A stretch of DNA of 64,000 nucleotides. Source: a virus. Position 1 is the stretch's first letter, and each line of letters starts with the position of its first letter. This document shows positions 18,742 to 34,865 of this stretch, one piece after another. The notes beneath the pieces were generated by a model. The model had not been told where the DNA came from and did no database searches. It was given only the letters and a program-made list of their open reading frames with translations. Position numbers and translations under genes: made by a program. The stretch spans positions 43,937 to 107,936 of IMG/VR virus record IMGVR_UViG_3300022833_000005; one strand, given 5' to 3'.

Positions 18742-19140
18742 ATGAGAACAGCTGAAATTTGCCCAACTTGTGCCACATTCCAAAATGCTGAATGCATTAT
18801 TTACAATGGCCCATACCTTTCTAATATTATTGTAAACCCTTTAGATAGTTTACAAACTATATTAATTGCAATTAATAATAACTTAATTCCTTTAACAGGA
18901 ATAACTGCAACACCTCCAGCAGGTGTACCTGCAACTTTTGTAGGTCAGTTATATTTAAGTCCAAATAGTCCATTAGTATATTATGCATCCACTTCGGGTA
19001 CTGCTGATGATTTTGAGGTATTAATAACTGCACCAAAAACAGGAGTTCCTCAATTTTCAAATAATGCAGCTGCTGTATTTGCAGGTTTAATTCCTGGACA
19101 AATATATAGAACAGCAGACTTTCTTAAAATAGTTTATTAG
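18742..19140 (+). CDS. Putative virion protein with a Cys-rich N-terminal module paralogous to the fibre N-terminus
   Basis: CPTC...ECIIYNGPYL resembles C...CP...ACVFYEGPNL of the next gene. Confidence 0.6.
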   Translation: MRTAEICPTCATFQNAECIIYNGPYLSNIIVNPLDSLQTILIAINNNLIPLTGITATPPAGVPATFVGQLYLSPNSPLVYYASTSGTADDFEVLITAPKTGVPQFSNNAAAVFAGLIPGQIYRTADFLKIVY

Positions 19141-19164
19141 AGAAATAACAAAATTCAATATTAT

Positions 19165-22100
19165 ATGAACAAATTAGTTTGTGCAGCAAATCCTTGCCCA
19201 ATTATACTTAGTAGTGCATGTGTCTTTTACGAAGGCCCTAATTTATTATGTGCTAATATTTTAACAAATCAAACTGTTGAAGAAGCTCTTAAGAATATTG
19301 ATGCTCTCTTGTGTGCTGGTAAAGGTTTAGATGGTTCATCTGGTACATCTGGTACATCTGGTACAAGTGGCACAACTGGTACCAGTGGAACGTCTGCTAC
19401 ATCAGGAACATCAGGTACAAGTGGTACAAGCGGAACATCAGGTACAAGTGGTACAACAGGTACATCAGGTAGTAGTGGAACATCAGCTACAAGTGGAACA
19501 TCAGGTACGTCAGGTACTAGTGGTACATCAGGTACATCTGGTACAACAGGTACAAGTGGTACAACAGGTACAAGCGGTACTTCTGCTACTAGTGGTACAA
19601 GTGGAACAACAGGTACATCAGGTACATCTGGTACAACAGGTACGAGTGGTACAACAGGTACAAGCGGTACTTCTGCTACTAGTGGTACAAGTGCTACATC
19701 TGGCACTAGTGGTAGCTCTGGATATGATGGAGATAAATATAAAACAACATCTACTGATTCATTTTTATTATGCAATCCAGGATGTTTAACAGTTGATCTA
19801 GGATTAGCATTCACTCCTGGTCAGTCTATTGTTGTAGCTCATGATATAAATAATTATCAAGAATGTACAATAATAACATACAACTCTGCTAATGGAGAAT
19901 TATGTTTTACAGAACCAATAACTTGTGTAGGAAGTGGTACATATAGTGAATGGTATATAAATTTAGATGGATCAACCGGTGGTGATGGGTCTTCTGGTAC
20001 TAGTGGTACTAGTGGAACAACAGGTACTAGTGGTACGTCTGGTACAAGTGGTACTAGTGGTACATCAGGTACAACAGGTACAAGTGGTACAAGTGGTACA
20101 TCTGGTACAAGTGGTACGACAGGTACATCTGGTACGACAGGTACAAGCGGAACATCTGCTACCAGTGGAACAACAGGTACAAGTGGTACAACAGGTACAA
20201 GTGGTAGTAGTGGCACAACAGGTACAAGTGGTACAAGTAGTACATCAGGTAGCAGTGGTACAGTTGGTACATCTGGTACATCTGGTACATCAGCTACATC
20301 TGGTACAAGTGGTACATCAGGTAGTAGTGGTACAACTGGTACTAGTGGTACAACAGGTACAACAGGTACATCTGGTACAAGTGGATTAAATGGTTCGTCT
20401 GGAGCAGCAATAGCAAATTGGTATGCAAGTTTTTCTGATAGCACTACTCAATCTCTTTCAGCATCAAATGTTTCAACAGCAATTACATTTAATACAATAG
20501 AATTAAACAATGGAGTTGCCTTAGATTTTAATCAAGAAATAAGATATCCACATGCAGGAATATATGAAGTAGGTTATTCTTTACAACTAAAGCAATCTGG
20601 AAGTGAAACTTCGTATTCTAGCGTTGATGTATTTTTAAGAAAAAATGGTAATGACATTATAAGGAAAGATAGATTAATTGATATTGAACCAGGAGGTAGG
20701 GTTAATTTACCTTTTGCTTCATTTATATTGAATTTAGAAGCAAATGATTATTTAGAATTAATGTTTGCTTCTACTAATCCAAATATTCAAATTTCAGCAG
20801 TTGCAAGTTCATCTTCTCCTTATACTAAACCTGCTGCACCTTCAGTTATATTTATTACAAAACAAATAGGAGTGTCCGTAGGATCAACTTCTGGAATATC
20901 AGGTACAACAGGTACAAGTGGTACAAGTGGTACATCTGGTACAAGTGGCACAACTGGTACAAGTGGCACAACTGGTACATCTGGTACAAGTGGTACAAGT
21001 GGTACAAGTGGTACTTCAGGACTTCTTGGATCCGCAGCAGTTCCTTTAGTTATTACTGGTACTAATATTTCTATCAATCAATCTAGCTCAATTGCTAATG
21101 GTTTTTTAAGCTCAACAGATTGGAACAATTTTAATAATAAAGCAAACACAGCTTCTCCTACATTTACAGGAACAGTTGGCGGTATAACAAAAGAAATGGT
21201 AGGACTTGGAAACGTAGACAATTTGCCAAGTCTTTTTATAGAAAACGCAACTGGAGGTAGCCAATCAACACAAAGAGTTGGAGCGGGTACTGCAACAGGA
21301 AGTCAATCTACTATAAGTGGTGGTGAAAATAATAATTCAAGTGGCGATTATTCAACAGTTGGTGGTGGTCGTACTAATATTTCGAGTGGTAATTATTCAA
21401 CAGTTGGTGGTGGTCGTATTAATACTTCGAGTAGTTTTTATTCAACACTTAGCGGTGGTCTTAGTAATATTTCGAGTGCTAATTATTCAACAGTTGGTGG
21501 TGGTCAGACTAGTACTGCGAGTGGTTTTTATTCAACAGTTAGCGGTGGTTATATGAATGTTGCAAGTAACACTAACTCTACAGTAAGTGGAGGGGTTAGC
21601 AATACAGCAAGTGGTGGTTATTCAACAATAAGCGGTGGTAAATCTAATACAGCATCAGCTGGTCTTTCTTCAATACTAGGTGGTGCCTATAACAACACAT
21701 CAACATTTGTTAACTCACACATTATAGGTAGTAATATAATAGCATCTGTAGCAAATACTACTTTCGTTGAAGACTTATCTATTAAGAATATTCCAATTGG
21801 CTCAACTTTAGAGGTTGGAGCAAACAATGTCTTGATAGCGGGTTCAGCGGGTGGAGCAAGTCTTTTTGAAGAAAACGCAACAGGAGGAGTTGGTTCAACA
21901 CAAAGAGTTGGTTCGGGTACAGCATCAGGTAATACTTCAACAGTTAGTGGTGGAGATACTAACATAGCATCAGGTGATAGCTCAACAGTTGGTGGTGGTA
22001 TAGCGAACACAGCATCAGATAATAAATCTACAGTTGGTGGTGGAAGTAATAATCAAGCTACGGGTAGTTATTCTACAATTGGTGGTGGTAAGAACAACGC

Positions 22101-22710
22101 AGCTAGTGCATTCAGTAGTTTTATGGGTACTACTAAGGGTTCTACGGTAAGTGGAGGTGGAAATAATACCGCAGGTGGTGTCGGGGGTAATTCGGGCTAT
22201 GAAACAATTGGCGGTGGACATCATAATATAGCAAGTGGGGATGTGTCTACCATTAGTGGTGGAGATACTAACATAGCATCAGGTGATAGCTCAACAGTTG
22301 GTGGTGGTTGGAATAACACAACAAGTACTCGATTTACAGTAATAGCTGGTGGTGGTATAAATACTGCAAGTGCTCCTTACGGAGTAGTAAGTGGAGGTAA
22401 GGACAATATAGTAAGTGGTAATCATTCTACAATAAGCGGTGGTCGTAATAATACTGCGAGTAGTTTTTATTCAACAGTTGGTGGTGGTTTTAGTAATATT
22501 TCGAGTGCTAATTATTCTTCAATAACGGGTGGAAAATTAAACAACACATCAACATTTGCTAACTCACACATTATAGGTAGTAATATAACTTCTAACAGAA
22601 TAAATACTACATTTGTACAGAATTTATCAATTACAACTATTCCAACAGCAAGTGCGGGATTACCTTCGGGTTCAGTTTGGAGTAACGGAGGGGTTTTAAA
22701 TATAGTATAA
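19165..22710 (+). CDS. Fibre/appendage protein: (Gly-Thr-Ser)n collagen-like stalks, C1q/BclA-CTD-like domain, two STVxGG-N beta-solenoid blocks
   Basis: Three Gly-X-Y Ser/Thr tracts; WYASF...GIYEVGYSLQ...LEANDYLEL domain (~20420-20860); 14-aa STV(S/G)GGxxNxAS repeats. Confidence 0.75.
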   Translation: MNKLVCAANPCPIILSSACVFYEGPNLLCANILTNQTVEEALKNIDALLCAGKGLDGSSGTSGTSGTSGTTGTSGTSATSGTSGTSGTSGTSGTSGTTGTSGSSGTSATSGTSGTSGTSGTSGTSGTTGTSGTTGTSGTSATSGTSGTTGTSGTSGTTGTSGTTGTSGTSATSGTSATSGTSGSSGYDGDKYKTTSTDSFLLCNPGCLTVDLGLAFTPGQSIVVAHDINNYQECTIITYNSANGELCFTEPITCVGSGTYSEWYINLDGSTGGDGSSGTSGTSGTTGTSGTSGTSGTSGTSGTTGTSGTSGTSGTSGTTGTSGTTGTSGTSATSGTTGTSGTTGTSGSSGTTGTSGTSSTSGSSGTVGTSGTSGTSATSGTSGTSGSSGTTGTSGTTGTTGTSGTSGLNGSSGAAIANWYASFSDSTTQSLSASNVSTAITFNTIELNNGVALDFNQEIRYPHAGIYEVGYSLQLKQSGSETSYSSVDVFLRKNGNDIIRKDRLIDIEPGGRVNLPFASFILNLEANDYLELMFASTNPNIQISAVASSSSPYTKPAAPSVIFITKQIGVSVGSTSGISGTTGTSGTSGTSGTSGTTGTSGTTGTSGTSGTSGTSGTSGLLGSAAVPLVITGTNISINQSSSIANGFLSSTDWNNFNNKANTASPTFTGTVGGITKEMVGLGNVDNLPSLFIENATGGSQSTQRVGAGTATGSQSTISGGENNNSSGDYSTVGGGRTNISSGNYSTVGGGRINTSSSFYSTLSGGLSNISSANYSTVGGGQTSTASGFYSTVSGGYMNVASNTNSTVSGGVSNTASGGYSTISGGKSNTASAGLSSILGGAYNNTSTFVNSHIIGSNIIASVANTTFVEDLSIKNIPIGSTLEVGANNVLIAGSAGGASLFEENATGGVGSTQRVGSGTASGNTSTVSGGDTNIASGDSSTVGGGIANTASDNKSTVGGGSNNQATGSYSTIGGGKNNAASAFSSFMGTTKGSTVSGGGNNTAGGVGGNSGYETIGGGHHNIASGDVSTISGGDTNIASGDSSTVGGGWNNTTSTRFTVIAGGGINTASAPYGVVSGGKDNIVSGNHSTISGGRNNTASSFYSTVGGGFSNISSANYSSITGGKLNNTSTFANSHIIGSNITSNRINTTFVQNLSITTIPTASAGLPSGSVWSNGGVLNIV
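19333..19723 (+). repeat. 9-bp-period tandem repeat encoding (GTS/GTT/ATS)n, block 1
   Basis: ggtacaagt/ggtacatct/ggaacatca units. Confidence 0.95.
19987..20403 (+). repeat. 9-bp-period tandem repeat encoding (GTS/GTT)n, block 2
   Basis: Same triplet units. Confidence 0.95.
20881..21021 (+). repeat. 9-bp-period tandem repeat encoding (GTS/GTT)n, block 3
   Basis: Same triplet units. Confidence 0.95.
21944..22308 (+). repeat. Exact 56-bp direct repeat (21944-21999 and 22253-22308) within the solenoid repeats
   Basis: ttagtggtggagatactaacatagcatcaggtgatagctcaacagttggtggtggt occurs twice. Confidence 0.9.
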
Positions 22711-22735
22711 TAATAATAATAAATAAACAGAAAAG

Positions 22736-23050
22736 ATGGAAAACAATTTTACAGTTCATATTTTTGGGTACGGAGAAACTCAATATATAACAAAAGACGT
22801 TAATTTTAAAACATTAACAACAGATTTAACAAAGGTTCAGCCTTTAATTGATGCAATTTGGGCAGAAAAACCCGAAGACGTAACGGGCGGAGATGAATAT
22901 CACGCAGTAAACATATTTAATTACAACAACAAAAATTGGCAAGGAAAAGGAAAAGAAAATGCTTCTTTTTATATTAGAGAAAATGATAACTTAGTGGATT
23001 TAATTGATGCTTTAATTACAGAGATTAAATACTTAGTTCCAAGTAAATAA
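22736..23050 (+). CDS. Hypothetical protein (possibly fibre-associated)
   Basis: 104-aa ORF with an A-rich leader directly after the fibre gene. Confidence 0.65.
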   Translation: MENNFTVHIFGYGETQYITKDVNFKTLTTDLTKVQPLIDAIWAEKPEDVTGGDEYHAVNIFNYNNKNWQGKGKENASFYIRENDNLVDLIDALITEIKYLVPSK

Positions 23051-23070: not shown

Positions 23071-23104
23071 AGAGCGATAATATAGTTAATATTTATCGCT
23101 TTTA
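23071..23104 (+). terminator. Probable intrinsic terminator
   Basis: agcgataa...ttatcgct inverted repeat followed by a T-run. Confidence 0.55.
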
Positions 23105-23107
23105 CTA

Positions 23108-23115
23108 TATATTTG
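23108..23115 (+). promoter_or_regulatory. Bacteroidota -7 box (TATATTTG) for the sulfation cassette
   Basis: TAnnTTTG 16 nt upstream of the ATG at 23132. Confidence 0.55.
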
Positions 23116-23131: not shown

Positions 23132-23950
23132 ATGAATAAAAAAATCTTTTACAATTCTTCTTTGCCAAGGGCGGGTTCGACTTTAATATCTAATATTATT
23201 GCTCAAAACCCTAACTTTTATTGCACTCCAACTTCGGGTGTTTCTGATTATCTTTTAGGCAATAGAGCGACTTTTATTAATTCCCAACCTATTAAGGCAC
23301 AAAATAAAGAAAATATGGAAAAATCATTCTTTAATTATGCTAAATTTGGTATTCAAGGGTATTTTAGTGAATTAACTGACAAGCAGTTAATACTTGACAA
23401 AAGTAGAGATTGGGCGATTAATTATAGGTTGTTAGATGAAATCTATGCAAATCCTAAAATTATTTGTATGGTTAGAGATGTTAGGGCAATCTATTCTTCT
23501 ATGGAGAAAAACTTTAGAAAAAATCCTCACAAAGAAAATCATATACAAAATGTATCACAGTTAGTTGGAACTACTTTAGACAAAAGAGTTGATATTTGGG
23601 CAGATGGTTTACCCGTAGGTGTTGCAATGGATAGGTTAAAAGATATTTTTCAACAAGGGCTAGATAAACATATTTTATTTATTCGCTATGAAGATTTAAT
23701 GTCAAACCCAAAAGAAACAATGAATAGGGTGTATGACTATTTTCTTATTGATAGATTTGAACATTCATTTGATAAAATAGAACAATTAACACAAGAAGAT
23801 GATGGCGTTCACGGAATATATGGCGACCATAAATTAAGGCAAAAATTTAATATGTTACCAAATGATTTTGAAGAAATTTTAGGAATAGAATTATCTGAAA
23901 AAATTAAAAATACTTATCAGTGGTTTTTTAATAAATTCTACACGCTATGA
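23132..23950 (+). CDS. PAPS-dependent sulfotransferase
   Basis: 5'-PSB loop SSLPRAGST, 3'-PB motif MVRDVRAIYSS, and RYEDL. Confidence 0.88.
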   Translation: MNKKIFYNSSLPRAGSTLISNIIAQNPNFYCTPTSGVSDYLLGNRATFINSQPIKAQNKENMEKSFFNYAKFGIQGYFSELTDKQLILDKSRDWAINYRLLDEIYANPKIICMVRDVRAIYSSMEKNFRKNPHKENHIQNVSQLVGTTLDKRVDIWADGLPVGVAMDRLKDIFQQGLDKHILFIRYEDLMSNPKETMNRVYDYFLIDRFEHSFDKIEQLTQEDDGVHGIYGDHKLRQKFNMLPNDFEEILGIELSEKIKNTYQWFFNKFYTL

Positions 23951-24396
23951 TATATTGGTTCACAGGGCAACCATCCCACGGAAAAACAGTTTTAGCAAAT
24001 TTGTTAAAAGATATATTTAAGGACAAAAAAGTGTTTCACGTTGACGGAGATGATTTAAGAGCCTTAACTTTGAATAAGGACTATTCCAAACAAGGTAGGT
24101 TAGATAATGTAAGAGGTGCGCAAAAAATAGCCCATTATCTACACAACGAAGGTTGTACGGTGGTGGTTTCATTAGTTTCTCCTTACAGAGAGCAAAGAGA
24201 ACAGTTAAAGAGTGTTTTAGGGGAAAACATTATTGAAATATTTATACACACAACAGAAGCAAGAGAAAGAGATTGTTATAGGGTTGAAGACTATGAAAAA
24301 CCGTTAGAAAACTTTATTGATATTGATACGACTTTTGATACACCCGAACAATCACTTAAAAAAATAATAGAAAAATGTCAGATAGAAAATATTTAG
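23947..24396 (+). CDS. cysC: Adenylyl-sulfate (APS) kinase
   Basis: IYWFTGQPSHGKT P-loop, DGDDLR, VSLVSPY, YEKP motifs. Confidence 0.88.
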   Translation: MIYWFTGQPSHGKTVLANLLKDIFKDKKVFHVDGDDLRALTLNKDYSKQGRLDNVRGAQKIAHYLHNEGCTVVVSLVSPYREQREQLKSVLGENIIEIFIHTTEARERDCYRVEDYEKPLENFIDIDTTFDTPEQSLKKIIEKCQIENI

Positions 24397-24779
24397 TCCA
24401 ATCCGCAACTCAGTCTTCATTTAGTGAAGTAAAATTCTCTATGTATATTGGAAGATGGCAACCTTTTCACACAGGTCATAGATGGTTAATCGACCAAAGA
24501 TTAGACGAGGGAAAAAATATCTTAATTTGTATTAGAGATATAGCACCCGATGAAAAGAATCCTTGGACAGCAGAAGAGGTTACATTGAACTTAAATAAAG
24601 TATTAAAGGATTTAATTGAAGAGGGTCGTGTTAAAATTATAACTATTCCCGACATAGAATCTATTAATATTGGTAGGGGTGTTGGATATGATATTATAGA
24701 ACACTTACCACCTAATGAAATTAAAGAAGTATCAGCTACTAAAATTAGAAATCAAATGAAAAAAGATGGTAAATTATAA
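24375..24779 (+). CDS. HIGH-superfamily nucleotidyltransferase (cytidylyltransferase-like; candidate minimal ATP sulfurylase)
   Basis: IGRWQPFHTGH and VSATKIR motifs; operonic with cysC. Confidence 0.75.
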   Translation: MSDRKYLVQSATQSSFSEVKFSMYIGRWQPFHTGHRWLIDQRLDEGKNILICIRDIAPDEKNPWTAEEVTLNLNKVLKDLIEEGRVKIITIPDIESINIGRGVGYDIIEHLPPNEIKEVSATKIRNQMKKDGKL

Positions 24780-24975
24780 AAGGCATTTAGGCAAAACTAT
24801 TTCTTGGAGAATTATAGGCACTTTAGATACTATTATTTTATCAGGATTAATAACGGGAGATTTTATGATTGGCTTATCTATTGGAGGTGTAGAAGTCTTT
24901 ACAAAAATGATATTATACTTTTTCCACGAAAGAGCTTGGTATAAATACTCTAAATTTGGATTAGATAAAAAATAA
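24766..24975 (+). CDS. DUF2061-like small membrane protein
   Basis: KTISWRIIGTLDT...KMILYFFHERAW signature. Confidence 0.8.
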   Translation: MVNYKRHLGKTISWRIIGTLDTIILSGLITGDFMIGLSIGGVEVFTKMILYFFHERAWYKYSKFGLDKK

Positions 24976-25010: not shown

Positions 25011-28000
25011 TCAAAATCTAAACCATTTTTCTGAAATTAATAAATTAATTTTTTCTATTACTTGAACTGATTTAATACTCCTATGGCATTCAAAATGTCT
25101 AGGAGTATTTTTATGTTCAGGGCACCAATTCCAATCTCCCTTATCGAATGTATGTTCAGTTTTATTCCAACAACTGTTACATACAGATAAATCTTTTACT
25201 CTATAGCATTTAAATTCATGACTTTCTTCAGTGAAGTTTGATATCATAATAACTTCTTTATCTAAGGCCCAAGCTAACCAACTCAATCCTGAAGACAATC
25301 CTATAAAGAATTCACTTTGTGTGATCCATTCTATAGTGCTTTCTAATGATTTATTCTGAAGAGGTTCACAATTATCAAAAGGATTATCTTCTAATGAAAC
25401 ATTCTTAATAATATAGCCTTCTTTGTGCAAGTAATTAATTACATCTTGCCATCCTTCTCTGGTCCAATATTTACATCCTGCTGTACTATTTGTAGCTATT
25501 GTAACTAGTTTATAGTGTGCTTTATTTCCTGATTTATATATTTTTGGTTTTATTTCTACATAACTCAATCCTAATATATTTGTAGCTGTTTTTTGTAATG
25601 GTATTGTATTTGGTAATTCAGGTTCTTTATTAGTATTATAGAACCATCCTATTTTATACATTGCATATAAATTAGGTGCAACCTCTCCAGGTTTAATAAA
25701 TTCTAATTCAGGATATTCATTTTCAAATAAGAAATTTTTATAAGTGCTAACAATCATCTTACATTTATGCTTTTTACGAAACTCTTCAACATAGGGTATC
25801 CATGCAATTGTATCTCCTAAAGAAGAGCTATCAAAAGCTATGTAAACACGTTCATTTTCTAAATTAAATTCTTTAGTATATACAACCTTTCCATCTTCTG
25901 TCTTTATTATTGTTTTCCAGGCAGTATAATATTCTCTATCAAGTCTTATCCAAGAATTAACACCTATTGTGTTATTATATATAAGTTTTTCACCATCATA
26001 CATTTCAACAGTAAATTTTTTATTAGATGTACCTTTTATTTCTAAATACGGTTTACCTACAAAATGTTGTATAACATAAAAGTCTTCTTTAATTTTATTT
26101 TGCATCACATCAATATTTAATACTCTGTTATATAAACTTTTATGATTGCCTCCAAATGTAATATTTGTATTATTACTAGGAACTTCATAGACATCTTTAC
26201 TATCTAATGCTTTTTTTAATTGATCATCTATGTTTGATAATCCAACATTTTCAATTGCATGTATGTACTTTGTAAACATATTTCCATACTGAGGTAAGTT
26301 GCGTGCAATTATTGGAAGATTATAAGATATAGCTTCTCTCAACACTAGAGGATTGCATTCCCAAGTGCTATTAAACATAAATACATCTGCAGCTAACATA
26401 AATAAATGTGTATCTGATCTTTCTCCCCATATGTGTACATTAGAAGGTACATCTTTCATAATTGGTTCCCAATATTCACTAAAGTTTACTGCTTGATTAC
26501 CTACAAAATGAAAATCTACATTTGGAAAGCTTCTTGCTAGTTCTACACCTTCTCCCTGATTTTTTCCTTTAGTCCACAGTCCTATATTTACTACATGTTT
26601 TCTATTATTATCAAAACCTAATTCATATTTTGCTTCAACTTTTGATTTTAGATTATTTACAACAGGTTCTATTGGAAATTCAATTACGTCTTTGTAAGAA
26701 GGTGTATCTTTAAATGTTTTTAAATGATAAGAAGTGCAAAAAGCATAAGCTTCTGGATGATATTTTTTTTCTGTATCTGGAGAAAAAGATATGTTATGAC
26801 ATGTTTCTATAATTTTCCATGTTCTATCGTTTGCATACAATAAGTTAAGTACTTCTGCTGATCCATTTCCTAAGTGTTCAGACATTTCATCTATGTGTAC
26901 AATATCAATTTTGTTATTTCTTATAATATCAATGAGTTCTGTTTTATCTTCTCCTAATGTATAGATGTTTTTTACTATTTCTCTTATTTGATTTTTCTGT
27001 ACAACATACTCGTCACTGTAATTAGCCCACTCTACTACATAAATATTAAATCCAACTAATGATTTTATTCTTCTAAGTAAGAATTCAGGCATACCACCTG
27101 TAGATAAATGTGGAGCAATGAATAAAACTTTTTTTGAAAGTTGGTTTATTGTGTCTTGCATTATACTAATGTCTTTTTCTCCATGAAAAGCTAATAGATG
27201 TTCTTCTTTTGCAGGTGTGGCAACCCATTCTGATATATGATTTACCTCACCCGTAAATTTAAAACTACTTACATCTACTTTACCCTTATAGTTTATATAC
27301 ATTAGAGGAAGTCCTATGTGGATATTATGTTTCCACAATAACACATTCATTATAGTTTCTTCGTGATAAGGGGCATACAATTGTGGGTTTTTCACTATAG
27401 CTGGATGACTGCACATCCAAGACCATTCATCAATAAAATTACGAGAATTCTGACCAGCTACAAAGTAACCACTTTGTCTATACTTATTTCTAACTGATTG
27501 ATCTACATTAAAAAGTTTACATGCAGCATGTTCTAAACTTTCATGTAAATCATCTCTAGTTTCTACTCCACCACGACCATTAATAAATAAATAATCATAT
27601 ACACCTTCTACAAAGTATGGATGTGTAGCTTCATTAGGTAGATAATCAAATATAGTATCTATATATTTAGTTACTACAGTGTCTGAATCTATATAAGCTA
27701 TTGTCAAAGCATGCTTATCTAAAGCATCTGCAACAATTAAAGGTCTTTGTATTAGTAATTTATAAATCTGAGAGTTATTTCTATCTAAATAGTTATTTTT
27801 TTCTATGTGTACACCTTCTAAATTCCATTCAATTGTTTTGTATGCACCTTTTATTTTTATATCAGAGTTTATCATATACACTATTACAGGTATATTGCTA
27901 ACATTATTGATACTTTTTACAGCCATTGTTACTATTTCACTATAAGATGCATTTGCATATAATATGTATGATTTTTCCAATTTCATATGTATATACGTAT

Positions 28001-28487
28001 AATACCCATAATACTCGTTAGAGAAAATACATTTAAGTTTTGGATAACGTTCTGTCATTACATCTGGTGTAAGATCAAGTTGATGGTGAGTTTCGTGTAT
28101 ATTCCCTTCATGCTCTCCCTGCTCCATTTCATAAGGAATAGCAACTAAACAGTCTTTACCTAATTCAATAATTTTATCAATTAATTCTATAGCTTGATCT
28201 TTATGTAAATGTTCTAAAACATCTCCTAGAATAATAAAATCATAGTCTACTATAGAGAACTCAAGTATGTCTTTACAATATACATTATCATACTTTTTGA
28301 TTAACCCATATTTATAGATGTAAGGACTATATATCTCCACTGCATCTATATTATAGCTTTCTGATTCTAATAAATCTGCGTAAGTTCCTATACCAGGACC
28401 TACATCTAATAGTCTTTTATGAGTTGGGACATTGTCTTGAAACCACTGTTTTACTTCAGTTTTAAATAAATAAAAGCTAATAGGCAT
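25011..28487 (-). CDS. Multidomain glycan-modifying enzyme: SAM methyltransferase + GT-A + GT4 (GT-B) + TibC/Aah-like autotransporter heptosyltransferase
   Basis: LDVGPGIG/GDVLEH; YIDSD; PHLSTGGMP and ECNPLVLREA; SSLGDTIAW, GLSSGLSWLAW and CNSC...CP...FEC. Start set to ATG 28487 because the track's TTG start lies within a promoter box. Confidence 0.82.
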   Translation of the reverse strand: MPISFYLFKTEVKQWFQDNVPTHKRLLDVGPGIGTYADLLESESYNIDAVEIYSPYIYKYGLIKKYDNVYCKDILEFSIVDYDFIILGDVLEHLHKDQAIELIDKIIELGKDCLVAIPYEMEQGEHEGNIHETHHQLDLTPDVMTERYPKLKCIFSNEYYGYYTYIHMKLEKSYILYANASYSEIVTMAVKSINNVSNIPVIVYMINSDIKIKGAYKTIEWNLEGVHIEKNNYLDRNNSQIYKLLIQRPLIVADALDKHALTIAYIDSDTVVTKYIDTIFDYLPNEATHPYFVEGVYDYLFINGRGGVETRDDLHESLEHAACKLFNVDQSVRNKYRQSGYFVAGQNSRNFIDEWSWMCSHPAIVKNPQLYAPYHEETIMNVLLWKHNIHIGLPLMYINYKGKVDVSSFKFTGEVNHISEWVATPAKEEHLLAFHGEKDISIMQDTINQLSKKVLFIAPHLSTGGMPEFLLRRIKSLVGFNIYVVEWANYSDEYVVQKNQIREIVKNIYTLGEDKTELIDIIRNNKIDIVHIDEMSEHLGNGSAEVLNLLYANDRTWKIIETCHNISFSPDTEKKYHPEAYAFCTSYHLKTFKDTPSYKDVIEFPIEPVVNNLKSKVEAKYELGFDNNRKHVVNIGLWTKGKNQGEGVELARSFPNVDFHFVGNQAVNFSEYWEPIMKDVPSNVHIWGERSDTHLFMLAADVFMFNSTWECNPLVLREAISYNLPIIARNLPQYGNMFTKYIHAIENVGLSNIDDQLKKALDSKDVYEVPSNNTNITFGGNHKSLYNRVLNIDVMQNKIKEDFYVIQHFVGKPYLEIKGTSNKKFTVEMYDGEKLIYNNTIGVNSWIRLDREYYTAWKTIIKTEDGKVVYTKEFNLENERVYIAFDSSSLGDTIAWIPYVEEFRKKHKCKMIVSTYKNFLFENEYPELEFIKPGEVAPNLYAMYKIGWFYNTNKEPELPNTIPLQKTATNILGLSYVEIKPKIYKSGNKAHYKLVTIATNSTAGCKYWTREGWQDVINYLHKEGYIIKNVSLEDNPFDNCEPLQNKSLESTIEWITQSEFFIGLSSGLSWLAWALDKEVIMISNFTEESHEFKCYRVKDLSVCNSCWNKTEHTFDKGDWNWCPEHKNTPRHFECHRSIKSVQVIEKINLLISEKWFRF

Positions 28488-28505
28488 AATCTTTGATTTT
28501 AAATA

Positions 28506-28513
28506 CAAATGTA
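28506..28513 (-). promoter_or_regulatory. -7 box (TACATTTG) for the multidomain GT
   Basis: TAnnTTTG on the minus strand, 18 nt before the ATG. Confidence 0.55.
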
Positions 28514-28599: not shown

Positions 28600-28698
28600 T
28601 TACATATATTATGTATCATCAAGCAAATTGCGTTACTTATAGATTCTGTAGATAAGCATAAAGTTTGAACATATCATCTTAAAATACTCAATGTTAAC

Positions 28699-29019: not shown

Positions 29020-29020
29020 T

Positions 29021-29215: not shown

Positions 29216-29216
29216 A

Positions 29217-29958: not shown

Positions 29959-30361
29959 GAAAGATTCAGTTGTTACATTATCTGAAAGTCAAGCTAGGAG
30001 AGTTATTAAAGATCTAATACGATATGAAGCTCTTATACTTGTTTCTTCTGAATTAGAAGACCGTATATCTATTTTAGTAAAAAAAGAAAATGTATTTGTA
30101 CAAAAAATCATAGTTAAAGATTCTATAATATCTATACAACAACAGTATATTGATATACAAGATAAGGTAATAAATACAAAAAAACCTTTAAGATTTAATG
30201 GTTTTATAGGAATTCAAACACAACAGATATCTATAGAAAATCCTATATTGTATTTTCAAACTGAAGTGGAATTTAGAAAATTTAACATTGGTGCTAGAGT
30301 ATTTGTTAAACCAGATAGCTTTGCAGGATACGGATTAATAATTGAATATAAAATATTTTAA
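29882..30361 (+). CDS. Putative outer-membrane spanin-like protein with signal peptide
   Basis: Overlaps the preceding gene; signal-peptide-like N-terminus; beta-strand C-terminus ending in YKIF. Confidence 0.5.
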   Translation: MYKLKWLIFCLLVSFKSFSQADIQIKKDSVVTLSESQARRVIKDLIRYEALILVSSELEDRISILVKKENVFVQKIIVKDSIISIQQQYIDIQDKVINTKKPLRFNGFIGIQTQQISIENPILYFQTEVEFRKFNIGARVFVKPDSFAGYGLIIEYKIF

Positions 30362-30362
30362 T

Positions 30363-30524
30363 ATGAGAAATTTAGAAATTGTAGATTGGAAAATAGTAAT
30401 AGCTTTTCATTGGCCTCACCATAGATTTGCTTTAGGTTGGGATTTTATAAATCCTAACAAAGAGTTTAATTACACCACTATCAATTTATATTTATTGATA
30501 GCAACTGTAACAATAGATTTCTAA
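30363..30524 (+). CDS. Small hypothetical protein
   Basis: ATG 1 nt after the previous stop; 53 aa. Confidence 0.55.
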   Translation: MRNLEIVDWKIVIAFHWPHHRFALGWDFINPNKEFNYTTINLYLLIATVTIDF

Positions 30525-30602
30525 TTAAATTAATTAGCTTAAGTTTAATTATTCTAGTTATTTTAATTTTATTATAAGTTAAAATAGTGTTGAGAATATT
30601 CA

Positions 30603-30610
30603 TACTTTTG
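30603..30610 (+). promoter_or_regulatory. -7 box (TACTTTTG) upstream of the poly-Thr/GT cassette
   Basis: TAnnTTTG 25 nt upstream of ATG 30636. Confidence 0.55.
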
Positions 30611-30635
30611 TAATATATACTAAAAATAAAATAAA

Positions 30636-30770
30636 ATGGCTGTACCTTCTAAACAAATAAGTTGGGGAGCAACAGAAAACTTGTTATGGAATATTTCTAA
30701 ACAATTAGAAAGATTAATACAAGTAACTGGAACCCCAGCAACAACAACAACTACTACAACAGTAGTATAG
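30636..30770 (+). CDS. 44-aa mini-protein with C-terminal poly-Thr tail (not in ORF track)
   Basis: MAVPSKQISWGATENLLWNISKQLERLIQVTGTPATTTTTTTVV*; A-rich leader and promoter box. Confidence 0.75.
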   Translation: MAVPSKQISWGATENLLWNISKQLERLIQVTGTPATTTTTTTVV

Positions 30771-30776
30771 TAACTA

Positions 30777-30791
30777 GTCGCAAATTGCGAC
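30777..30791. repeat. Perfect 7-1-7 palindrome GTCGCAAATTGCGAC
   Basis: Seen directly in the intergenic gap. Confidence 0.8.
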
Positions 30792-30812
30792 CACAAAACC
30801 ACCAACTACATA

Positions 30813-31832
30813 ATGAAAGACTTAAAATTTATTTGTGCACAGCCAGATGATATATACTATACATGGCAAGTACATCTTTGGTTAGAAAGTTTAAAAGAGA
30901 TAGGTCAAATAAAGAATGCTATAGTTCTAGTATTTATACCTGCATATAGACCATTCAGTGACAAATGGCAAAAGATTCAAGATCTTTATCCTGATGCTGA
31001 ATTTAACTTTTATAAAGATGAAGAGAATGAAGTGGGTAAACTACTTTCAATATACATTCCTATACTTAGACCTTGGTTACTTTGTAAGTATTTCAAAGAA
31101 AATCCAGCAATGTCTGATAAAGCTGTATTTTATTGTGATAGTGATATTTTATTTACAGACAAATTTAATATAGAACAATTTATAGAAGATGAAGTTTGTT
31201 ATTTATCTGATACAAATAGCTATATAAATGCTAATTATTTTGATAGTAAAGTGAATCAGGTGTTACCTGAAAAACTTGAAGAGTATAAAAATAAAGATGT
31301 TCTTTCTGAAATAGCAAATATTATAGGAATAACTAGAAAGATTTGTGAAGATCATAATGATCATTCTGGAGGAGCTCAGTATCTTCTTAAGAATATAGAT
31401 CATACATTTTGGAGTAAAGTGATGAATGATTGTATTCTAATAAGAACATATTTACAACAAGTAAATAGAGAATTCTTTAAAACTGAAAACGATGGATACC
31501 AATCATGGTGTGCAGATATGTGGGCAGTTCTTTGGAATTTATGGATGAGAGAGCAAGAAACTAAAGTGGTTCCTGAATTAGCATTTGCATGGGGTCCAGA
31601 TCCTATAGTTAAACTAGATACACATACTATATATCACAATGCTGGTATTATAGGAACAGAACAACAAGGAATGCCCTGTTTTTACAAAGGTAAATATCAT
31701 TCTGGAATAGATCCTACAAAGGACCCTCATTTAGATGTAGTCTTGAATGATGAAAAAACTAAAAATTATTGCACTTGGTATTATGCCAAAGCATTAGATA
31801 ATATAAAAAATAAATATAACCTTAATTACTAA
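30813..31832 (+). CDS. GT-A fold glycosyltransferase, candidate protein O-glycosyltransferase (GT95/GT96-like motifs)
   Basis: YYTWQ, YIPILRP, FYCDSD (DxD), WCADMWA, IYHN motifs. Confidence 0.65.
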   Translation: MKDLKFICAQPDDIYYTWQVHLWLESLKEIGQIKNAIVLVFIPAYRPFSDKWQKIQDLYPDAEFNFYKDEENEVGKLLSIYIPILRPWLLCKYFKENPAMSDKAVFYCDSDILFTDKFNIEQFIEDEVCYLSDTNSYINANYFDSKVNQVLPEKLEEYKNKDVLSEIANIIGITRKICEDHNDHSGGAQYLLKNIDHTFWSKVMNDCILIRTYLQQVNREFFKTENDGYQSWCADMWAVLWNLWMREQETKVVPELAFAWGPDPIVKLDTHTIYHNAGIIGTEQQGMPCFYKGKYHSGIDPTKDPHLDVVLNDEKTKNYCTWYYAKALDNIKNKYNLNY

Positions 31833-31850
31833 CCCTTTAATTATAAACAA

Positions 31851-32030
31851 ATGGGAAGCCCAATTGACAAACGTCCATTAAAAGCTTTTGTTAGATTCGA
31901 TGGATCTGGCAGAGTAGTACCAAGTAGCTTAGTTCTACGAAGAAATAAACCTAAAGTAGGAAAATGGCAAGAAATTGTAGCATATGAATGTTGCAATCCT
32001 ACCACTACTACAACTACCACTACAGTGTAA
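31851..32030 (+). CDS. 59-aa mini-protein with C-terminal poly-Thr tail (not in ORF track)
   Basis: MGSPIDKRPLKAFVRFDGSGRVVPSSLVLRRNKPKVGKWQEIVAYECCNPTTTTTTTTV*; Thr run uses mixed codons. Confidence 0.78.
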   Translation: MGSPIDKRPLKAFVRFDGSGRVVPSSLVLRRNKPKVGKWQEIVAYECCNPTTTTTTTTV

Positions 32031-32049
32031 TGAATAAATAATATAGTAA

Positions 32050-32078
32050 AGGGTCAAGAGTTAATTCTTTTGATCCTA
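32050..32078 (+). terminator. Stem-loop downstream of the poly-Thr/GT cassette
   Basis: gggtcaagag...cttttgatcc inverted repeat with G-U pairs; no strong U-tract. Confidence 0.35.
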
Positions 32079-32106
32079 CTGTATTATAACTAACAATAAC
32101 TATTAC

Positions 32107-32394
32107 ATGCAAATAAGTAGAAAGTTTTTTCCTGAAATAATATTAGAGAATGAAAAAACATACTTTGCACACTTAGAAGGTGTAATTAGTTCTGTTGATG
32201 AATATTCTACATTGCAAATAACAAAAAGTGTAAATTCTTATATATTTAGATTAGCACCAAGTGTTCCAAAATATAATAATTTGTTATTAGAAGAAATTTT
32301 CAAATTGCATAAATTATTCAGAATACACCTAGATGTATCTAAAAGCATTAAGTCTACAGGAACTATAGTATTTAGGATAAATTTGGAAGATTAG
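32107..32394 (+). CDS. Hypothetical protein
   Basis: 95-aa ORF in block orientation. Confidence 0.65.
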   Translation: MQISRKFFPEIILENEKTYFAHLEGVISSVDEYSTLQITKSVNSYIFRLAPSVPKYNNLLLEEIFKLHKLFRIHLDVSKSIKSTGTIVFRINLED

Positions 32395-32406
32395 TAAATA
32401 TTTTCA

Positions 32407-32414
32407 TATCTTTG
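32407..32414 (+). promoter_or_regulatory. -7 box (TATCTTTG) with -33 TTTG at 32382-32385
   Basis: TTTG-N21-TAnnTTTG. Confidence 0.6.
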
Positions 32415-32445
32415 TTGAAATATAAACTAATAAATTAAAATAATT

Positions 32446-32706
32446 ATGGCACATTACGATTCTCAAAAAAGGTACACTTGGACTCCTGAAGACAAGTTTG
32501 AAATTACAGGACAAGAATTTGGACTAATTCTTAATACAGTTAGATCTTATTTAGCATCAGAAGATGCAGCACGTTTTCAACTAATGCAACAAACTAATCA
32601 AGTAATTGAAAAGATTATGAAAGCTGGTGTTGAAAATGATGTTATTAAAGAAGCAGTTGATGAAGTACAAGAACCTGTAAAGAATTCAATGGAGGTGGTA
32701 AATTAA
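32446..32706 (+). CDS. Hypothetical protein
   Basis: 86-aa ORF with an A-rich leader after a promoter box. Confidence 0.7.
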   Translation: MAHYDSQKRYTWTPEDKFEITGQEFGLILNTVRSYLASEDAARFQLMQQTNQVIEKIMKAGVENDVIKEAVDEVQEPVKNSMEVVN

Positions 32707-32715
32707 AACATTTAA

Positions 32716-32874
32716 ATGTCAGCAAAAAAAATGATAAAACGTGCAGATGGGTCCTACAGCAAACGAGGTTTGTGGGACAACATCCGTGCAAACAAAGGTT
32801 CTGGTAAAAAACCTACTAAATCAATGTTGGCACAAGAAAAAAAGATTAAATCTAAAACTAGTAAAAAGAAATAA
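32716..32874 (+). CDS. Small Lys-rich protein (not in ORF track)
   Basis: MSAKKMIKRADGSYSKRGLWDNIRANKGSGKKPTKSMLAQEKKIKSKTSKKK*. Confidence 0.7.
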   Translation: MSAKKMIKRADGSYSKRGLWDNIRANKGSGKKPTKSMLAQEKKIKSKTSKKK

Positions 32875-32876
32875 TT

Positions 32877-32999
32877 ATGGCTGCAACATTCAAACCACAT
32901 AAAATGTATAGTAAATCTGGAGCTGTTAAAATGGCTAATACCATGAAAGATCATTTAGATTTAAAAAAGAAAGGTTGGGGCCACACTAAAAAGAAATAA
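32877..32999 (+). CDS. Small Lys-rich protein (not in ORF track)
   Basis: MAATFKPHKMYSKSGAVKMANTMKDHLDLKKKGWGHTKKK*. Confidence 0.65.
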   Translation: MAATFKPHKMYSKSGAVKMANTMKDHLDLKKKGWGHTKKK

Positions 33000-33028
33000 A
33001 TCTTACACTTAATAAAAATTGAACGTCC

Positions 33029-33283
33029 ATGGCTACACCACGCAAGGGAAAAGCGAAAGTAAAAATAACTTCAGCAGGAAAGAAGGTTAGTTACGGTCAA
33101 GCAGGAAATGCTAAAGGTGGTGGATCAAGAGTTAAACCAGGTACTTCTAAAGGTGATAGTTATTGTGCTAGAAGTTTAGGTATTAAGAAAGGTTTATCAA
33201 AAAGTAAGCAAAACGACCCTAATACTCCAAACAACTTATCTCGTAAAAGATGGAAGTGTTCAGGAGCTAAATCTAAAAAATAA
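33029..33283 (+). CDS. Small basic protein (DUF6321-like)
   Basis: VSYGQAG...SYCARS...RKRWKC motif typical of aquatic phage basic proteins. Confidence 0.7.
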   Translation: MATPRKGKAKVKITSAGKKVSYGQAGNAKGGGSRVKPGTSKGDSYCARSLGIKKGLSKSKQNDPNTPNNLSRKRWKCSGAKSKK

Positions 33284-33299
33284 CAAAAAAAGTAAAATT

Positions 33300-33482
33300 A
33301 TGAAAGCAATGAAAGTAAAAAAAGCTATGTCTGGTAAAAAAATGACATACAAATCAGGTGGATCCTTAGGAATGAAATCAGTAAAATCTGGATTTGACAA
33401 AAACAAATCAATTACAAGAGCAGATATTATTGCAGCTTCTAAGAAAAAAGCTAAAATGGGTGGCAAAGTGAAAAAGAAATAA
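33300..33482 (+). CDS. Small Lys-rich protein
   Basis: 60 aa, very basic, with KSGG/KMGG motifs. Confidence 0.7.
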   Translation: MKAMKVKKAMSGKKMTYKSGGSLGMKSVKSGFDKNKSITRADIIAASKKKAKMGGKVKKK

Positions 33483-33484
33483 GT

Positions 33485-34129
33485 TTACATTTGCTTTAAT
33501 TTATTACCCCAAGTAGAAATACCACTTGCGTGATCTAAATAGTATTGCCATTCTTCTGGTATAGATGTTACATCTAAATACCAGGGTGTATGTTTAATAC
33601 AATAAGGTTTATCAAGTCTAATAGCATCATAAGAAAATACTGAGTGTGGTTTGTAGAGAGCAAATGTAGTATCTACATGAGCTTCCCAACCATACTCATT
33701 TTCTTTTTCCCAATATTTTGATTCATGGGTATGTGCTTGTATTCCTATTTCAGTATTAGGTAAGTCTTCTATATCTAATGAAAACCCTATTTTAAATGCA
33801 CCTGATTTATCTAAAACATTTATCATAACATCCAACCAATCTGAAGGTACATTATCATATGTACAATCTGGATCTGCTACAATAAACATACCTTCTCTTA
33901 AGTGATCAATTGATGCATCCCATGCAACATAAGGTCCACTGTTGTTTTTTGAATAATGAACAATTTCAGGTATTGTCTTATACCATTCTAATAAAGGAGG
34001 ATAAGTAGAAGATTGATCCAATATATGGATTTCTTCCACCCTAACCTCTTTTCTTAAAAATTCTATAGTAGCTTTAAGTGTAGTTAATAGATTTCTATTT
34101 ACTATTATTGCTTTTACTAACATACACAT
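33485..34129 (-). CDS. Glycosyltransferase family 2-like protein
   Basis: IVNRN...ILDQSSTYPPL...ADPD...DTTFALY. Confidence 0.7.
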   Translation of the reverse strand: MCMLVKAIIVNRNLLTTLKATIEFLRKEVRVEEIHILDQSSTYPPLLEWYKTIPEIVHYSKNNSGPYVAWDASIDHLREGMFIVADPDCTYDNVPSDWLDVMINVLDKSGAFKIGFSLDIEDLPNTEIGIQAHTHESKYWEKENEYGWEAHVDTTFALYKPHSVFSYDAIRLDKPYCIKHTPWYLDVTSIPEEWQYYLDHASGISTWGNKLKQM

Positions 34130-34865
34130 CTAACATTTTTTGATAATCTTTTTGCCAAGCAGGAACTAAATCAATATCTCCTGTAGGTATTTTACCTGCT
34201 AATCTTAATCCTTCTATGTGTGCTGAATGTCTTTGTATGATGTTTGGTTTAATTTCATCATCTGTACCTTGGCCAGATTGATGATAACCTCTACCACCCC
34301 ACATATAAAACCAAGAAGCTTCTGAATCAGGCATTTTAGCATCAATAACAAATTGTCTACCTAAAGCATGAATTCTACTAGTAAGTGTTGTATCACCCCC
34401 AGCGTTCTCCAGAGGGCTTTTCCCGATCTCTTCCCAAACTTTCTTACTATATACTATTCCTGAATTACCAATGCCTGTAATGTTAGTAATTGATGGTTCG
34501 TTATAGAAAATACCTGTTTCCCAATGAATAATATTAGTGTCAGCTTTCCAAAATTTAGCAACATTAGATAAATGATTAGATAAAGCTACATCATCATCAT
34601 CCCAAACAGCAATAAGTCCATCTTTACATCTTTCAATAGCATAGTTTTCTTTTTCACCTATTGTTTTAAATGTTTCATTAAGATTATATATCTTTACTTG
34701 AGGATGATCAAATACTAATTTTTGTTGTGGGTAATCATTTACTATAATTAACTCACATCTATCTTTAGGATAATCTTGTATTAGAAAACTATGTAGGGCT
34801 TCCACTAATGTGTCAACCCTTCCATATGTTATACATTTACAAGATATAAATGGTAAAATTTGCAT
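34095..34865 (-). CDS. Glycosyltransferase family 2 protein
   Basis: CITYGR...SFLIQDY...IIVND...VWDDDD. Confidence 0.8.
   Translation of the reverse strand: MQILPFISCKCITYGRVDTLVEALHSFLIQDYPKDRCELIIVNDYPQQKLVFDHPQVKIYNLNETFKTIGEKENYAIERCKDGLIAVWDDDDVALSNHLSNVAKFWKADTNIIHWETGIFYNEPSITNITGIGNSGIVYSKKVWEEIGKSPLENAGGDTTLTSRIHALGRQFVIDAKMPDSEASWFYMWGGRGYHQSGQGTDDEIKPNIIQRHSAHIEGLRLAGKIPTGDIDLVPAWQKDYQKMLDVYVSKSNNSK

Follow-up and report, generated by a model that had tools for sequence, protein, structure and literature searches.

We identified, in a 64,000-nt stretch of DNA from an uncultured aquatic phage (the window, covering the final 64 kb of the 107.9-kb IMG/VR record labelled G000), three sets of predicted modification enzymes, each of which co-varies across phage genomes with one class of Ser/Thr-rich repeat in predicted virion proteins. 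A four-domain fusion enzyme with a TibC/Aah-like glycosyltransferase domain goes with collagen-like stalks of the tail fiber, a sulfotransferase (ST) goes with a YadA-head-like solenoid in the same fiber, and a 339-aa GT-A glycosyltransferase (GT339) goes with poly-threonine tracts. The domains of these enzymes were identified and their catalytic residues are conserved. With moderate confidence, we read them from the sequence evidence as three separable modules, each of which would act in the cytoplasm, ahead of particle assembly, on its own repeat class in virion surface proteins. The simplest account of three pairings that are specific and repeatedly re-assorted would be that every enzyme writes on a tag of its own. 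We infer from the co-variation that the relation is one of covalent modification, and the residues, the sugars, and the order of steps named below are proposed on the same grounds.

Viral contigs with a relative of the ST numbered 167, and those with a relative of the TibC-like domain 238. The main profile sample consisted of 24 near-complete phage records, chosen for carrying an ST or a TibC-like domain, and whole records were scored for the 3 enzymes and the 3 repeat classes, with collagen counted as present in records having 10 or more windows of twelve Gly-X-Y triplets in a row, and poly-Thr in records having 6 or more coding-strand T7 tracts. Three exact pairings with zero exceptions were obtained: the solenoid protein was identified in 13 of 13 ST-positive vs 0 of 11 ST-negative records (one-sided Fisher p 4e-7), collagen tracts in 18/18 records with and 0/6 without the TibC-like domain (p 7e-6), and T7 tracts in 20/20 records with and 0/4 without GT339, the latter having counts of 0, 0, 0, and 2 (p 9e-5). 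The 6 off-diagonal enzyme-repeat pairs showed no association in these 24 records (all p ≥ 0.035). A G000-type capsid protein (87–94% identity) was present in 16 of the records, and the remaining 8 had no detectable capsid homolog, including 318–385-kb jumbo phages and a separate 100-kb lineage. At the level of loci, a solenoid protein was identified in 50 of the 51 ST loci that had 6 kb or more of flanking sequence vs 0 of 70 ST-less TibC loci. On a capsid tree of 15 taxa, the ST requires at least 4 gains or losses, and the solenoid follows each time.

An initial annotation of the window had placed these enzyme domains and three kinds of Ser/Thr-rich repeat here, and all of them were found where it had located them. 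It had further suggested that a cross-genome correlation between enzymes and repeats be looked for, and each enzyme set was indeed found to co-vary with one repeat class, so that its proposal that the enzymes decorate Ser/Thr-rich virion proteins gained strong comparative support, with the exception of a pair of GT2-like genes that is unlinked to the repeats. Its idea of one integrated system was abandoned, since the ST, the TibC-like fusion enzyme, and GT339 occur independently, each with its own repeat partner: the ST was present in 3 of 14 complete TibC-positive records, the TibC-like domain in 5 of 11 complete ST-positive records, and GT339 was independent of both.

A second sample was drawn by the capsid gene alone, from a capsid clade that numbers at least 597 contigs, and gave nine new large contigs, five of them complete records. 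Among the nine, the ST was identified in G052 only and the TibC-like domain in G056 only; among the five complete records, the solenoid was confined to G052 (ST-solenoid 1/1 vs 0/4). The TibC-positive G056 had 34 windows of Ser/Thr-type collagen, whereas four TibC-less genomes (G051, G052, G053, and G055) had 3–10 windows of Pro/Gln/Glu-type collagen, with tracts of the conventional Gly-Pro-Gln or Gly-Glu-Gln type (e.g., G052:C1:53944-54371). Because TibC-less genomes hold this short Pro/Gln/Glu type, the partner of the TibC-like domain is proline-free Ser/Thr collagen and not collagen as such, and the broader form of the pairing was refined to the Ser/Thr type.

The tail fiber (1181 aa; 19165..22710, plus strand) matched Pfam Collagen (E 2.3e-34, 117 bits) and several PHROG tail-fiber families. 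This chimeric protein combines an N-terminal anchor and a C-terminal solenoid with three collagen-like Ser/Thr stalks and globular inserts, and its overall composition is 19% Ser, 17% Thr, and 19% Gly. The proline-poor (Gly/Ala)-X-Y tracts (19315-19737, 19969-20409, and 20893-21045, plus strand; residues 51-191, 269-415, and 577-627) have Ser or Thr at 82–97% of the X and Y positions, with occasional Ala at the Gly position, and form runs of 47, 30, 18, and 17 triplets with one Pro in total. By their uninterrupted Gly-X-Y periodicity, these tracts are collagen repeats, for which a triple helix is predicted. They are candidate acceptors of the fusion enzyme; in two TibC-less relatives (G029 and G030), the orthologous fiber keeps the N-terminal anchor and the solenoid without the stalk.

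The fusion enzyme (1165 aa; 25011..28508, minus strand; probable true start at the ATG at 28487) comprises an S-adenosylmethionine methyltransferase domain (Methyltransf_23; 28161-28427, residues 28-116), a GT-A domain (27135-27983, residues 176-458), a GT4 domain (Glycos_transf_1; about 26139-27131, with the Pfam match at residues 629-770), and a TibC/Aah-like protein O-glycosyltransferase domain (25038-26018, residues 831-1157), all on the minus strand. The model of the GT-A domain (predicted local distance difference test score, pLDDT, 91.8) had its best PDB matches among GT6 and GT8 folds (template modeling [TM] score to GT6 about 0.5), and D98/D100 of its DxD motif are invariant. The TibC-like domain scored 267.9 bits against TIGR04414 (E 1.2e-79), above the equivalog cut-off of 200, and matched PDB 4rap over residues 840-1157 (E 4.3e-45). 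TibC and Aah are cytoplasmic protein O-glycosyltransferases in which a thumb hairpin mediates a dodecamer ring, and TibC has the catalytic base Asp110, the sugar-binding residues Thr226, Lys230, Arg286, and Trp305, and a Cys4 iron finger (PMC4358343). In a pairwise alignment with 4rap, using the residues named in that paper, Asp110, Thr226, Lys230, and Trp305 are kept as Asp899, Thr1009, Lys1013, and Trp1077, Pro300 aligns with Ser1072, as in Aah, and the iron-finger Cys339, 342, 358, and 370 are kept as Cys1110, 1113, 1129, and 1141, which are invariant in 12 phage homologs. Among 80 relatives of the enzyme, 27 had all four domains, 30 lacked the methyltransferase, and 22 had GT4 and TibC only. 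A TibC-like domain of 42% identity occurs in the cultured Microcystis phage Mel-JY01. We propose that the TibC/Aah-like domain puts the first sugar on Ser/Thr of the proline-free Gly-Thr-Ser stalks, that the fused GT4 and GT-A domains would then extend the glycan, and that the methyltransferase domain would cap it; stalk glycosylation probably replaces hydroxyproline in stabilizing the triple helix.

The solenoid repeats (21310..22515, plus strand; residues 716-1117) have the consensus x-Y-S-T-V-G-G-G-x-x-N-x-A-S-G, with twenty S-T-V-G-G-type motifs that are spaced 14–15 residues apart in 11 of 19 intervals, and gave a marginal match to Pfam UspA1_rep (27.3 bits vs cut-off 27). Downstream of the fiber, behind a hairpin and a TATATTTG box, lies a cassette of four overlapping genes on the plus strand. 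Its first gene encodes a 3'-phosphoadenosine 5'-phosphosulfate (PAPS)-dependent ST (23132..23950; Sulfotransfer_3, PF13469, E 2e-17, 64.5 bits vs cut-off 27), in which the 5'-phosphosulfate-binding (5'-PSB) loop S-S-L-P-R-x-G-S-T-L (here S-S-L-P-R-A-G-S-T-L) and the 3'-phosphate-binding (3'-PB) motif R-D-x-R...S are invariant in 19 homologs, with 69% mean column identity in the alignment. The gene for a 149-aa adenosine 5'-phosphosulfate (APS) kinase (23947..24396; Pfam APS_kinase, E 7.5e-20, 71.9 bits vs 21.1) overlaps the ST stop codon by 4 nt; the P-loop, D-G-D, and S-P-Y...R motifs are present in its sequence, which is about 40 residues shorter than CysC and scored 70.7 bits against TIGR00455, under the equivalog cut-off of 138.7. 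The third gene encodes a 134-aa HxGH nucleotidyltransferase (24375..24779; cytidylyltransferase-like, E 1.4e-4), which by its sequence matches is NadM-like, of the archaeal nicotinamide mononucleotide (NMN)-adenylyltransferase type (PDB 1ej2, E 6e-8; NCBIfam NMN-adenylyltransferase [NMNAT] models, E 5e-12, under cut-off). A Sat-type ATP sulfurylase was considered for this protein and found no support (PF01747, E 0.26, 11 bits), its best relatives being NadM-type, and synteny and fusions with APS kinase are the only arguments that make it a candidate sulfate adenylyltransferase. The PAPS-supply genes of the initial annotation were therefore confirmed for the recognizable kinase step and not for a complete pathway. 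The last gene encodes a 69-aa DUF2061 membrane protein (24766..24975; Pfam E 6.6e-22). A GC-rich hairpin (about 23072-23105) is located between the gene for a 104-aa protein and the ST operon.

Cassette membership was counted in 80 ST loci, of which 60 had the APS kinase, 48 the nucleotidyltransferase, and 50 the DUF2061 protein. The APS kinase is fused elsewhere to each of two cassette neighbors, and we therefore regard the cassette as one functional unit: phrog_10255 (230 profile positions) covers the APS kinase at positions 3-85 and the 134-aa nucleotidyltransferase at 133-229, and a 301-aa protein on a Bacteroidetes metagenome-assembled genome (MAG) contig (L210:1441-2346), which adjoins an ST homolog, has DUF2061 at residues 21-72 and a full APS kinase at residues 116-264 (E 2e-57). 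The latter fusion offers a first functional hint for DUF2061.

The top companion of the ST, above the APS kinase, was a small GT9-like protein of 290–314 aa that adjoins it in 71 of 80 loci (e.g., L032:10758-11699, N-terminus M-N-I-I-F-D-I-S-G-G-L-G-K). Its likeness to GT9 is weak, with Pfam matches in 2 of 14 members, and its comparison with the TibC-like domain gave an hhalign probability of 66%, with Lys in the column of the catalytic Asp. In most phages, the ST module thus looks like glycosylation plus sulfation. G000 and L004, the closest ST relative with full flanks, have lost this partner, and because it is absent, the sulfate in G000 possibly sits directly on protein instead of glycan; alternatively, the large fusion enzyme may provide the sugar to which it is attached. 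The methylated and sulfated glycan coat that had been envisaged for G000 found no support, and the suggested mimicry of a substrate of SusC/D uptake systems is speculative. Homologs of the ST were rare among 185,579 species genomes, with 19 loci, all in MAGs. Several of those in bacterial MAGs (36–49% identity) adjoin secreted solenoid or Ser/Thr/Gly-rich proteins (L192 and L193 at 6 nt, L187, L189, and L195); a homolog of 36% identity has a YadA-like protein 6 nt upstream on a 65%-GC Anaerolineales contig, and the neighbors of other lone homologs on high-GC contigs include an autotransporter-like protein, a PEP-CTERM protein, and a YadA-like protein in a Methylacidiphilales MAG. In the proposed scheme, the ST would use PAPS from the phage APS kinase, with the NadM-like nucleotidyltransferase and DUF2061 as probable helpers, and would sulfate the solenoid in the C-terminal half of the fiber, on Ser/Thr/Tyr directly or on a sugar.

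GT339 (30813..31832, plus strand; phrog_4417) is predicted by its model to have a GT-A fold, and D109/D111 of its DxD motif are invariant. The model (pLDDT 97.1) matched glycogenin, XXYLT1, and WbbM with a Foldseek probability of 1.0 and a TM score of about 0.45, and no PDB sequence-profile match was obtained. Its initial label, GT95/96-like (HPAT, SGT1), found no support: none of 46 diverse family members matched any Pfam model at E ≤ 0.01, and no solved GT95/96 structure is among the fold matches. One Atlas hint toward the HPAT type was seen, PF23452 on 10% of one neighboring cluster. GT339 is a candidate poly-Thr O-glycosyltransferase.

The gene is flanked by two mini-proteins, of which the 44-aa protein (30636..30770, plus strand) has a conserved 30-residue N-terminal module and a P-A-T7-V-V tail, and the 59-aa protein (31851..32030, plus strand) has a conserved 47-residue N-terminal module ending in C-C-N-P, followed by a T8-V tail; relatives of the latter have one to four T7-(A-A-P) units. 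The 30- and 47-residue modules head 109–558-aa proteins in relatives (L092, L093, L102, and L111), where they are followed by a poly-Thr linker and then a globular or fiber-like C-terminal part, and they look like interchangeable virion anchors. Of 40 GT339 loci, 34 have a poly-Thr open reading frame (ORF) within 250 nt of the gene, 18 of them on both flanks. Further poly-Thr proteins of G000 lie outside the window (L163 and L164) and have 376, 117, 255, and 1969 aa (C1:19870-21000, 21775-22128, 23588-24355, and 28448-34357). The genes for the 376-aa and 117-aa proteins closely follow the major capsid gene, and both proteins have T7 and two further residues at the C-terminus. The 255-aa protein is 40% Ser plus Thr with five T-runs, and another five occur in the 1969-aa virion protein, near residues 1546-1792. 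PHROG and Pfam gave no match to the 376-, 117-, and 255-aa proteins, nor did PDB to the 376-aa protein.

The GT339 family was identified by tblastn in 77 cultured phages and stands beside poly-Thr-ending capsid and tail-tube genes in phages of Enterococcus, Lactobacillus, Mammaliicoccus, and Arcanobacterium. In Enterococcus phage phiFL1A, the gene directly follows the major tail protein gene, and in Lactobacillus phage PLE3 it comes after the gene of a small poly-Thr protein, beside the capsid gene; in both phages, the capsid and tail-tube proteins end in poly-Thr. In two Sextaecvirus-type phages, a tail protein and other proteins of the head-tail module end likewise. Chryseobacterium phage MA9V-3 has a GT339 homolog of 33% identity. 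In the proposed scheme, GT339 would O-glycosylate the poly-Thr tails and linkers of the two flanking mini-proteins and of several structural proteins encoded elsewhere in G000.

The assignment of each enzyme to its own virion repeat is supported by the solubility of the enzymes, by their position in or beside the structural gene block, and by the fact that the TibC/Aah family is known only for protein O-glycosylation. Several observations weigh on the other side. The 24 records were picked for the ST or the TibC-like domain and are mutually related, so the Fisher values overstate significance, and because enzyme and repeat genes are often adjacent, their joint transfer could owe something to linkage. 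G059 (72% complete) has a Ser/Thr collagen tract at the contig end and no TibC-like domain in its sequenced part, and ENFP1, one of 6 sampled cultured phages, has no poly-Thr near the glycosyltransferase. In the TibC-like domain, Arg286 is replaced by Thr1058 and the beta-hairpin thumb (Phe265/Val266; dodecamer) is deleted, with a stretch about 9 residues shorter in the pairwise alignment; the ADP-heptose genes gmhA and rfaE were not found in G000; and the known substrates of TibC are autotransporter beta-helices, whereas the phage partner is a collagen-like triple helix. The case for all these proteins is built on sequences and models. Our confidence stays moderate because adjacency aids co-transfer and the TibC-like domain differs in two functional elements.

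A more ambitious version of the same proposal centers on the ST, and we offer it tentatively. Here, phages would sulfate their own fibers with a phage-specific ST family and a self-contained PAPS pathway, including a new ATP sulfurylase derived from NadM and a DUF2061 helper, acting on YadA-like solenoids; some bacteria would do likewise for secreted adhesins, and together with the other two pairs this would amount to a modular code of tags and writers.

A different target for the enzymes would be the host envelope, whose glycan precursors they would sulfate or glycosylate in the cytoplasm, with the fiber domains recognizing the altered receptor and the phage being guarded against superinfection or against loss of progeny on debris. 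This is unlikely in our judgment. It predicts the co-variation of fiber domain and enzyme for the ST-solenoid pair equally, but collagen stalks and poly-Thr tails are spacers and not receptor binders, yet they co-vary with their enzymes as tightly. Enzymes of the GT2 and GT4 families typically serve in polysaccharide synthesis, whereas TibC/Aah enzymes act on proteins (PMC4358343) and the GT339 family is found inside head-tail operons, with poly-Thr on capsid and tail-tube proteins. A membrane protein, DUF2061, ends the ST cassette, and the ST weakly resembles NoeE, a glycolipid sulfotransferase (E 6.6e-6); however, we saw neither a flippase nor a polymerase or undecaprenyl-phosphate transferase in the window, and no lysogeny gene was noticed among the scanned window genes, to which rIIA/B, DNA polymerase, and ribonucleotide reductase belong, an integrase not having been searched for.

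Co-variation without any functional relation would arise if fiber segments and neighboring enzyme genes were swapped as blocks in a recombination hot spot, an explanation that we regard as improbable. Fiber regions are known mosaic hot spots and the partners are usually 0–5 kb apart, but co-occurrence persists despite varied order and strand, the fiber being upstream, 3–5 kb downstream on the other strand, or at another site 80 kb away (G010), and the poly-Thr tracts are spread over 50 kb of G000. The ST pairing is also found with an ST of 36% identity on a 65%-GC contig, and the GT339 pairing in Firmicutes phages. Modification of phage DNA (glycosylated or hypermodified bases) or of small metabolites in place of proteins is very improbable, since co-variation with three different protein repeats would not be expected of enzymes acting on DNA, members of the TibC family are specific for proteins, and no hydroxymethylase was noted among the scanned window genes; phage glycosyltransferases often glucosylate DNA (as cited in PMC12619734), and with its location at the end of the replication block the GT2-like pair is the only place in the window where this reading is possible.

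The pair consists of two overlapping GT2-like genes of 214 aa and 256 aa (33485..34865, minus strand) at the distal end of the replication-gene block. Both had been annotated as GT2-like, and this was borne out for the 256-aa protein (36 vs the Pfam cut-off of 23.3), the 214-aa protein falling just under (22.4). They gave only generic GT2 matches in PDB and NCBIfam and are restricted to the capsid clade, where they were present in 14/16 and 7/16 records. In the record profiles, the pair was independent of all three repeat classes, and a role in the decoration system was rejected for this lack of co-variation.

Phage virion glycosylation, pairs of bacterial autotransporter heptosyltransferases (BAHT) with adhesins, and annotated phage ST genes are already known. 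The novelty lies in the three pairings and the four-domain fusion, and most of all in the fiber-linked sulfation cassette with its own PAPS supply. We know of no sulfated phage particle, and to our knowledge mycobacteriophages are the only phages whose own enzymes have been shown to glycosylate the virion; in the literature, we found no paper on ST-fiber coupling, TibC-like enzymes in phages, or poly-Thr tags. Bacillus BclA carries O-glycans on Thr of G-X-T repeats, with methylated sugars in the glycan, and in Riftia cuticle collagen galactosyl-Thr stabilizes a helix free of hydroxyproline. The fiber stalk resembles both in its proline-poor, Thr-rich Gly-X-Y repeats, which in BclA and Riftia depend on O-glycans for stability or surface properties; unlike them, it has almost only Thr/Ser at X and Y, and the enzymes are unrelated, the presumed priming enzyme being of the BAHT type. 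The chlorovirus PBCV-1 protein A064R, with two glycosyltransferase domains and a sugar methyltransferase, acts on the capsid glycan in the cytoplasm and resembles the fusion enzyme as one viral polypeptide with several glycosyltransferase domains and a methyltransferase, but it comes from a eukaryotic virus, acts on an N-linked glycan, and has non-homologous domains. The cassette, in which an APS kinase and a nucleotidyltransferase stand beside the ST, recalls the combination of APS kinase and adenylyltransferase in bifunctional PAPS synthases and CysDN/CysC, except that its adenylyltransferase is NadM-like and not Sat or CysD. Annotated STs of cyanophages S-SKS1, S-SCSM1, and S-SRM01 are 25–29% identical to the G000 ST and have a non-fiber context.

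The closest precedent for the fusion enzyme is the BAHT family, with the pairs TibC-TibA and Aah-AIDA-I (TIGR04414; PDB 4RAP/4RB4; Yao et al. 2014, PMC4358343). As in that family, a soluble enzyme is encoded near a Ser-rich repetitive surface protein that is presumably modified before export or assembly, and the phage domain keeps the catalytic Asp, 3 of 4 sugar-binding residues, and the Fe-binding Cys4 finger. Unlike its members, the phage enzyme is fused to GT4, GT-A, and methyltransferase domains, in addition to the lost thumb, the replaced Arg286, and the ADP-heptose genes not found in G000. Members of the family transfer heptose from ADP-heptose to Ser of an autotransporter passenger, and G000 has no autotransporter. 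For GT339, the precedent is that of mycobacteriophages Che8, Corndog, and Myrna, in which phage glycosyltransferases glycosylate the C-terminal tails of capsid or tail-tube subunits (Freeman et al. 2023, Cell Host Microbe 31:1216, as cited in PMC12619734). The proposed poly-Thr module is similar in combining a phage glycosyltransferase with C-terminal tails, but GT339 is of a different family, and no Mycobacterium phage was among the genera of the 77 tblastn matches. The tags of G000 also differ in being pure poly-Thr, in lying on accessory and mini-proteins and not on the major capsid protein, and in the probable Bacteroidota host.

The three predicted chemistries, which are BAHT-type glycosylation of Ser/Thr collagen stalks, solenoid-linked sulfation, and glycosylation of poly-Thr tails, would be widespread in aquatic phages that probably infect Bacteroidota, in jumbo phages, and in Firmicutes phages. 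If the proposal holds, each chemistry would have a recognizable sequence tag, so that the repeat type predicts both the modification and the enzyme; the folding of proline-free collagen fibers would be explained, sulfation would join the modifications of phage particles, and a new ATP-sulfurylase-like enzyme would be indicated. It would also bear on phage adsorption, stability, and immune recognition in therapy. The poly-Thr module is directly testable in the cultured phages phiFL1A of Enterococcus and PLE3 of Lactobacillus.

Two further small proteins are encoded around the fiber. The 132-aa protein directly upstream (18742..19140, plus strand), whose position is kept in close relatives (L026, L027, L033, and L034), and the fiber (19165-19320) both start with the Cys-rich motif C-x2-C-x5-6-C-x2-Y-x-G-P-x-L, which is probably a virion-attachment module and suggests one attachment site on the particle for the two proteins. 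A 104-aa protein (22736..23050, plus strand) between the fiber and the ST was present in 26 of 80 ST loci and had no match in Pfam or NCBIfam family scans; its homologs end in a poly-Thr tail in L026, L032, L033, and L052. A probable lysis cassette (29145-30361), made up of an N-acetylmuramoyl-L-alanine amidase (Amidase_2, E 3.7e-15) and two small ORFs with hydrophobic products, separates the fusion enzyme from the GT339 unit.

G000 is estimated to be 93% complete and has a GC content of about 29%. In its plus-strand block, the genes for terminase, portal, and major head protein, all outside the window, are followed by those for giant virion proteins and then by the fiber region. The two giant ORFs at the end of the structural block (3-12437 and 12406-18663) encode proteins of 4335 aa, as counted in the full genome, and of 2085 aa; the former had no significant Pfam match, and the latter gave a weak exonuclease PHROG match and nothing else. 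The minus-strand block encodes UvsX, ribonucleotide reductase, rIIA/B, primase, helicases, and DNA polymerase. This layout suggested a crAss-like phage, but that label was dropped: against 50,697 phage records, the capsid protein matched only Leptolyngbya phage Lbo-JY46, at 25% identity, and because no cultured phage is close by capsid protein, we do not use the name. Megablast of the region matched only a collagen-like stretch in a megaphage.

The host is probably a member of Flavobacteriales or of other Bacteroidota, the clues being the DUF2061 protein of G000, which is 60–76% identical to Flavobacteriales proteins, and a set of TAnnTTTG boxes. These candidate boxes, which follow the Bacteroidota -7 promoter consensus, were seen about 20–30 nt upstream of seven genes, namely those of the 132-aa protein (18700-18735), the ST operon (23100-23115), the fusion enzyme (28505-28515, minus strand), a 106-aa protein (28600-28615), the amidase (29040-29055), the 44-aa protein (30600-30615), and an 86-aa protein (32405-32420).

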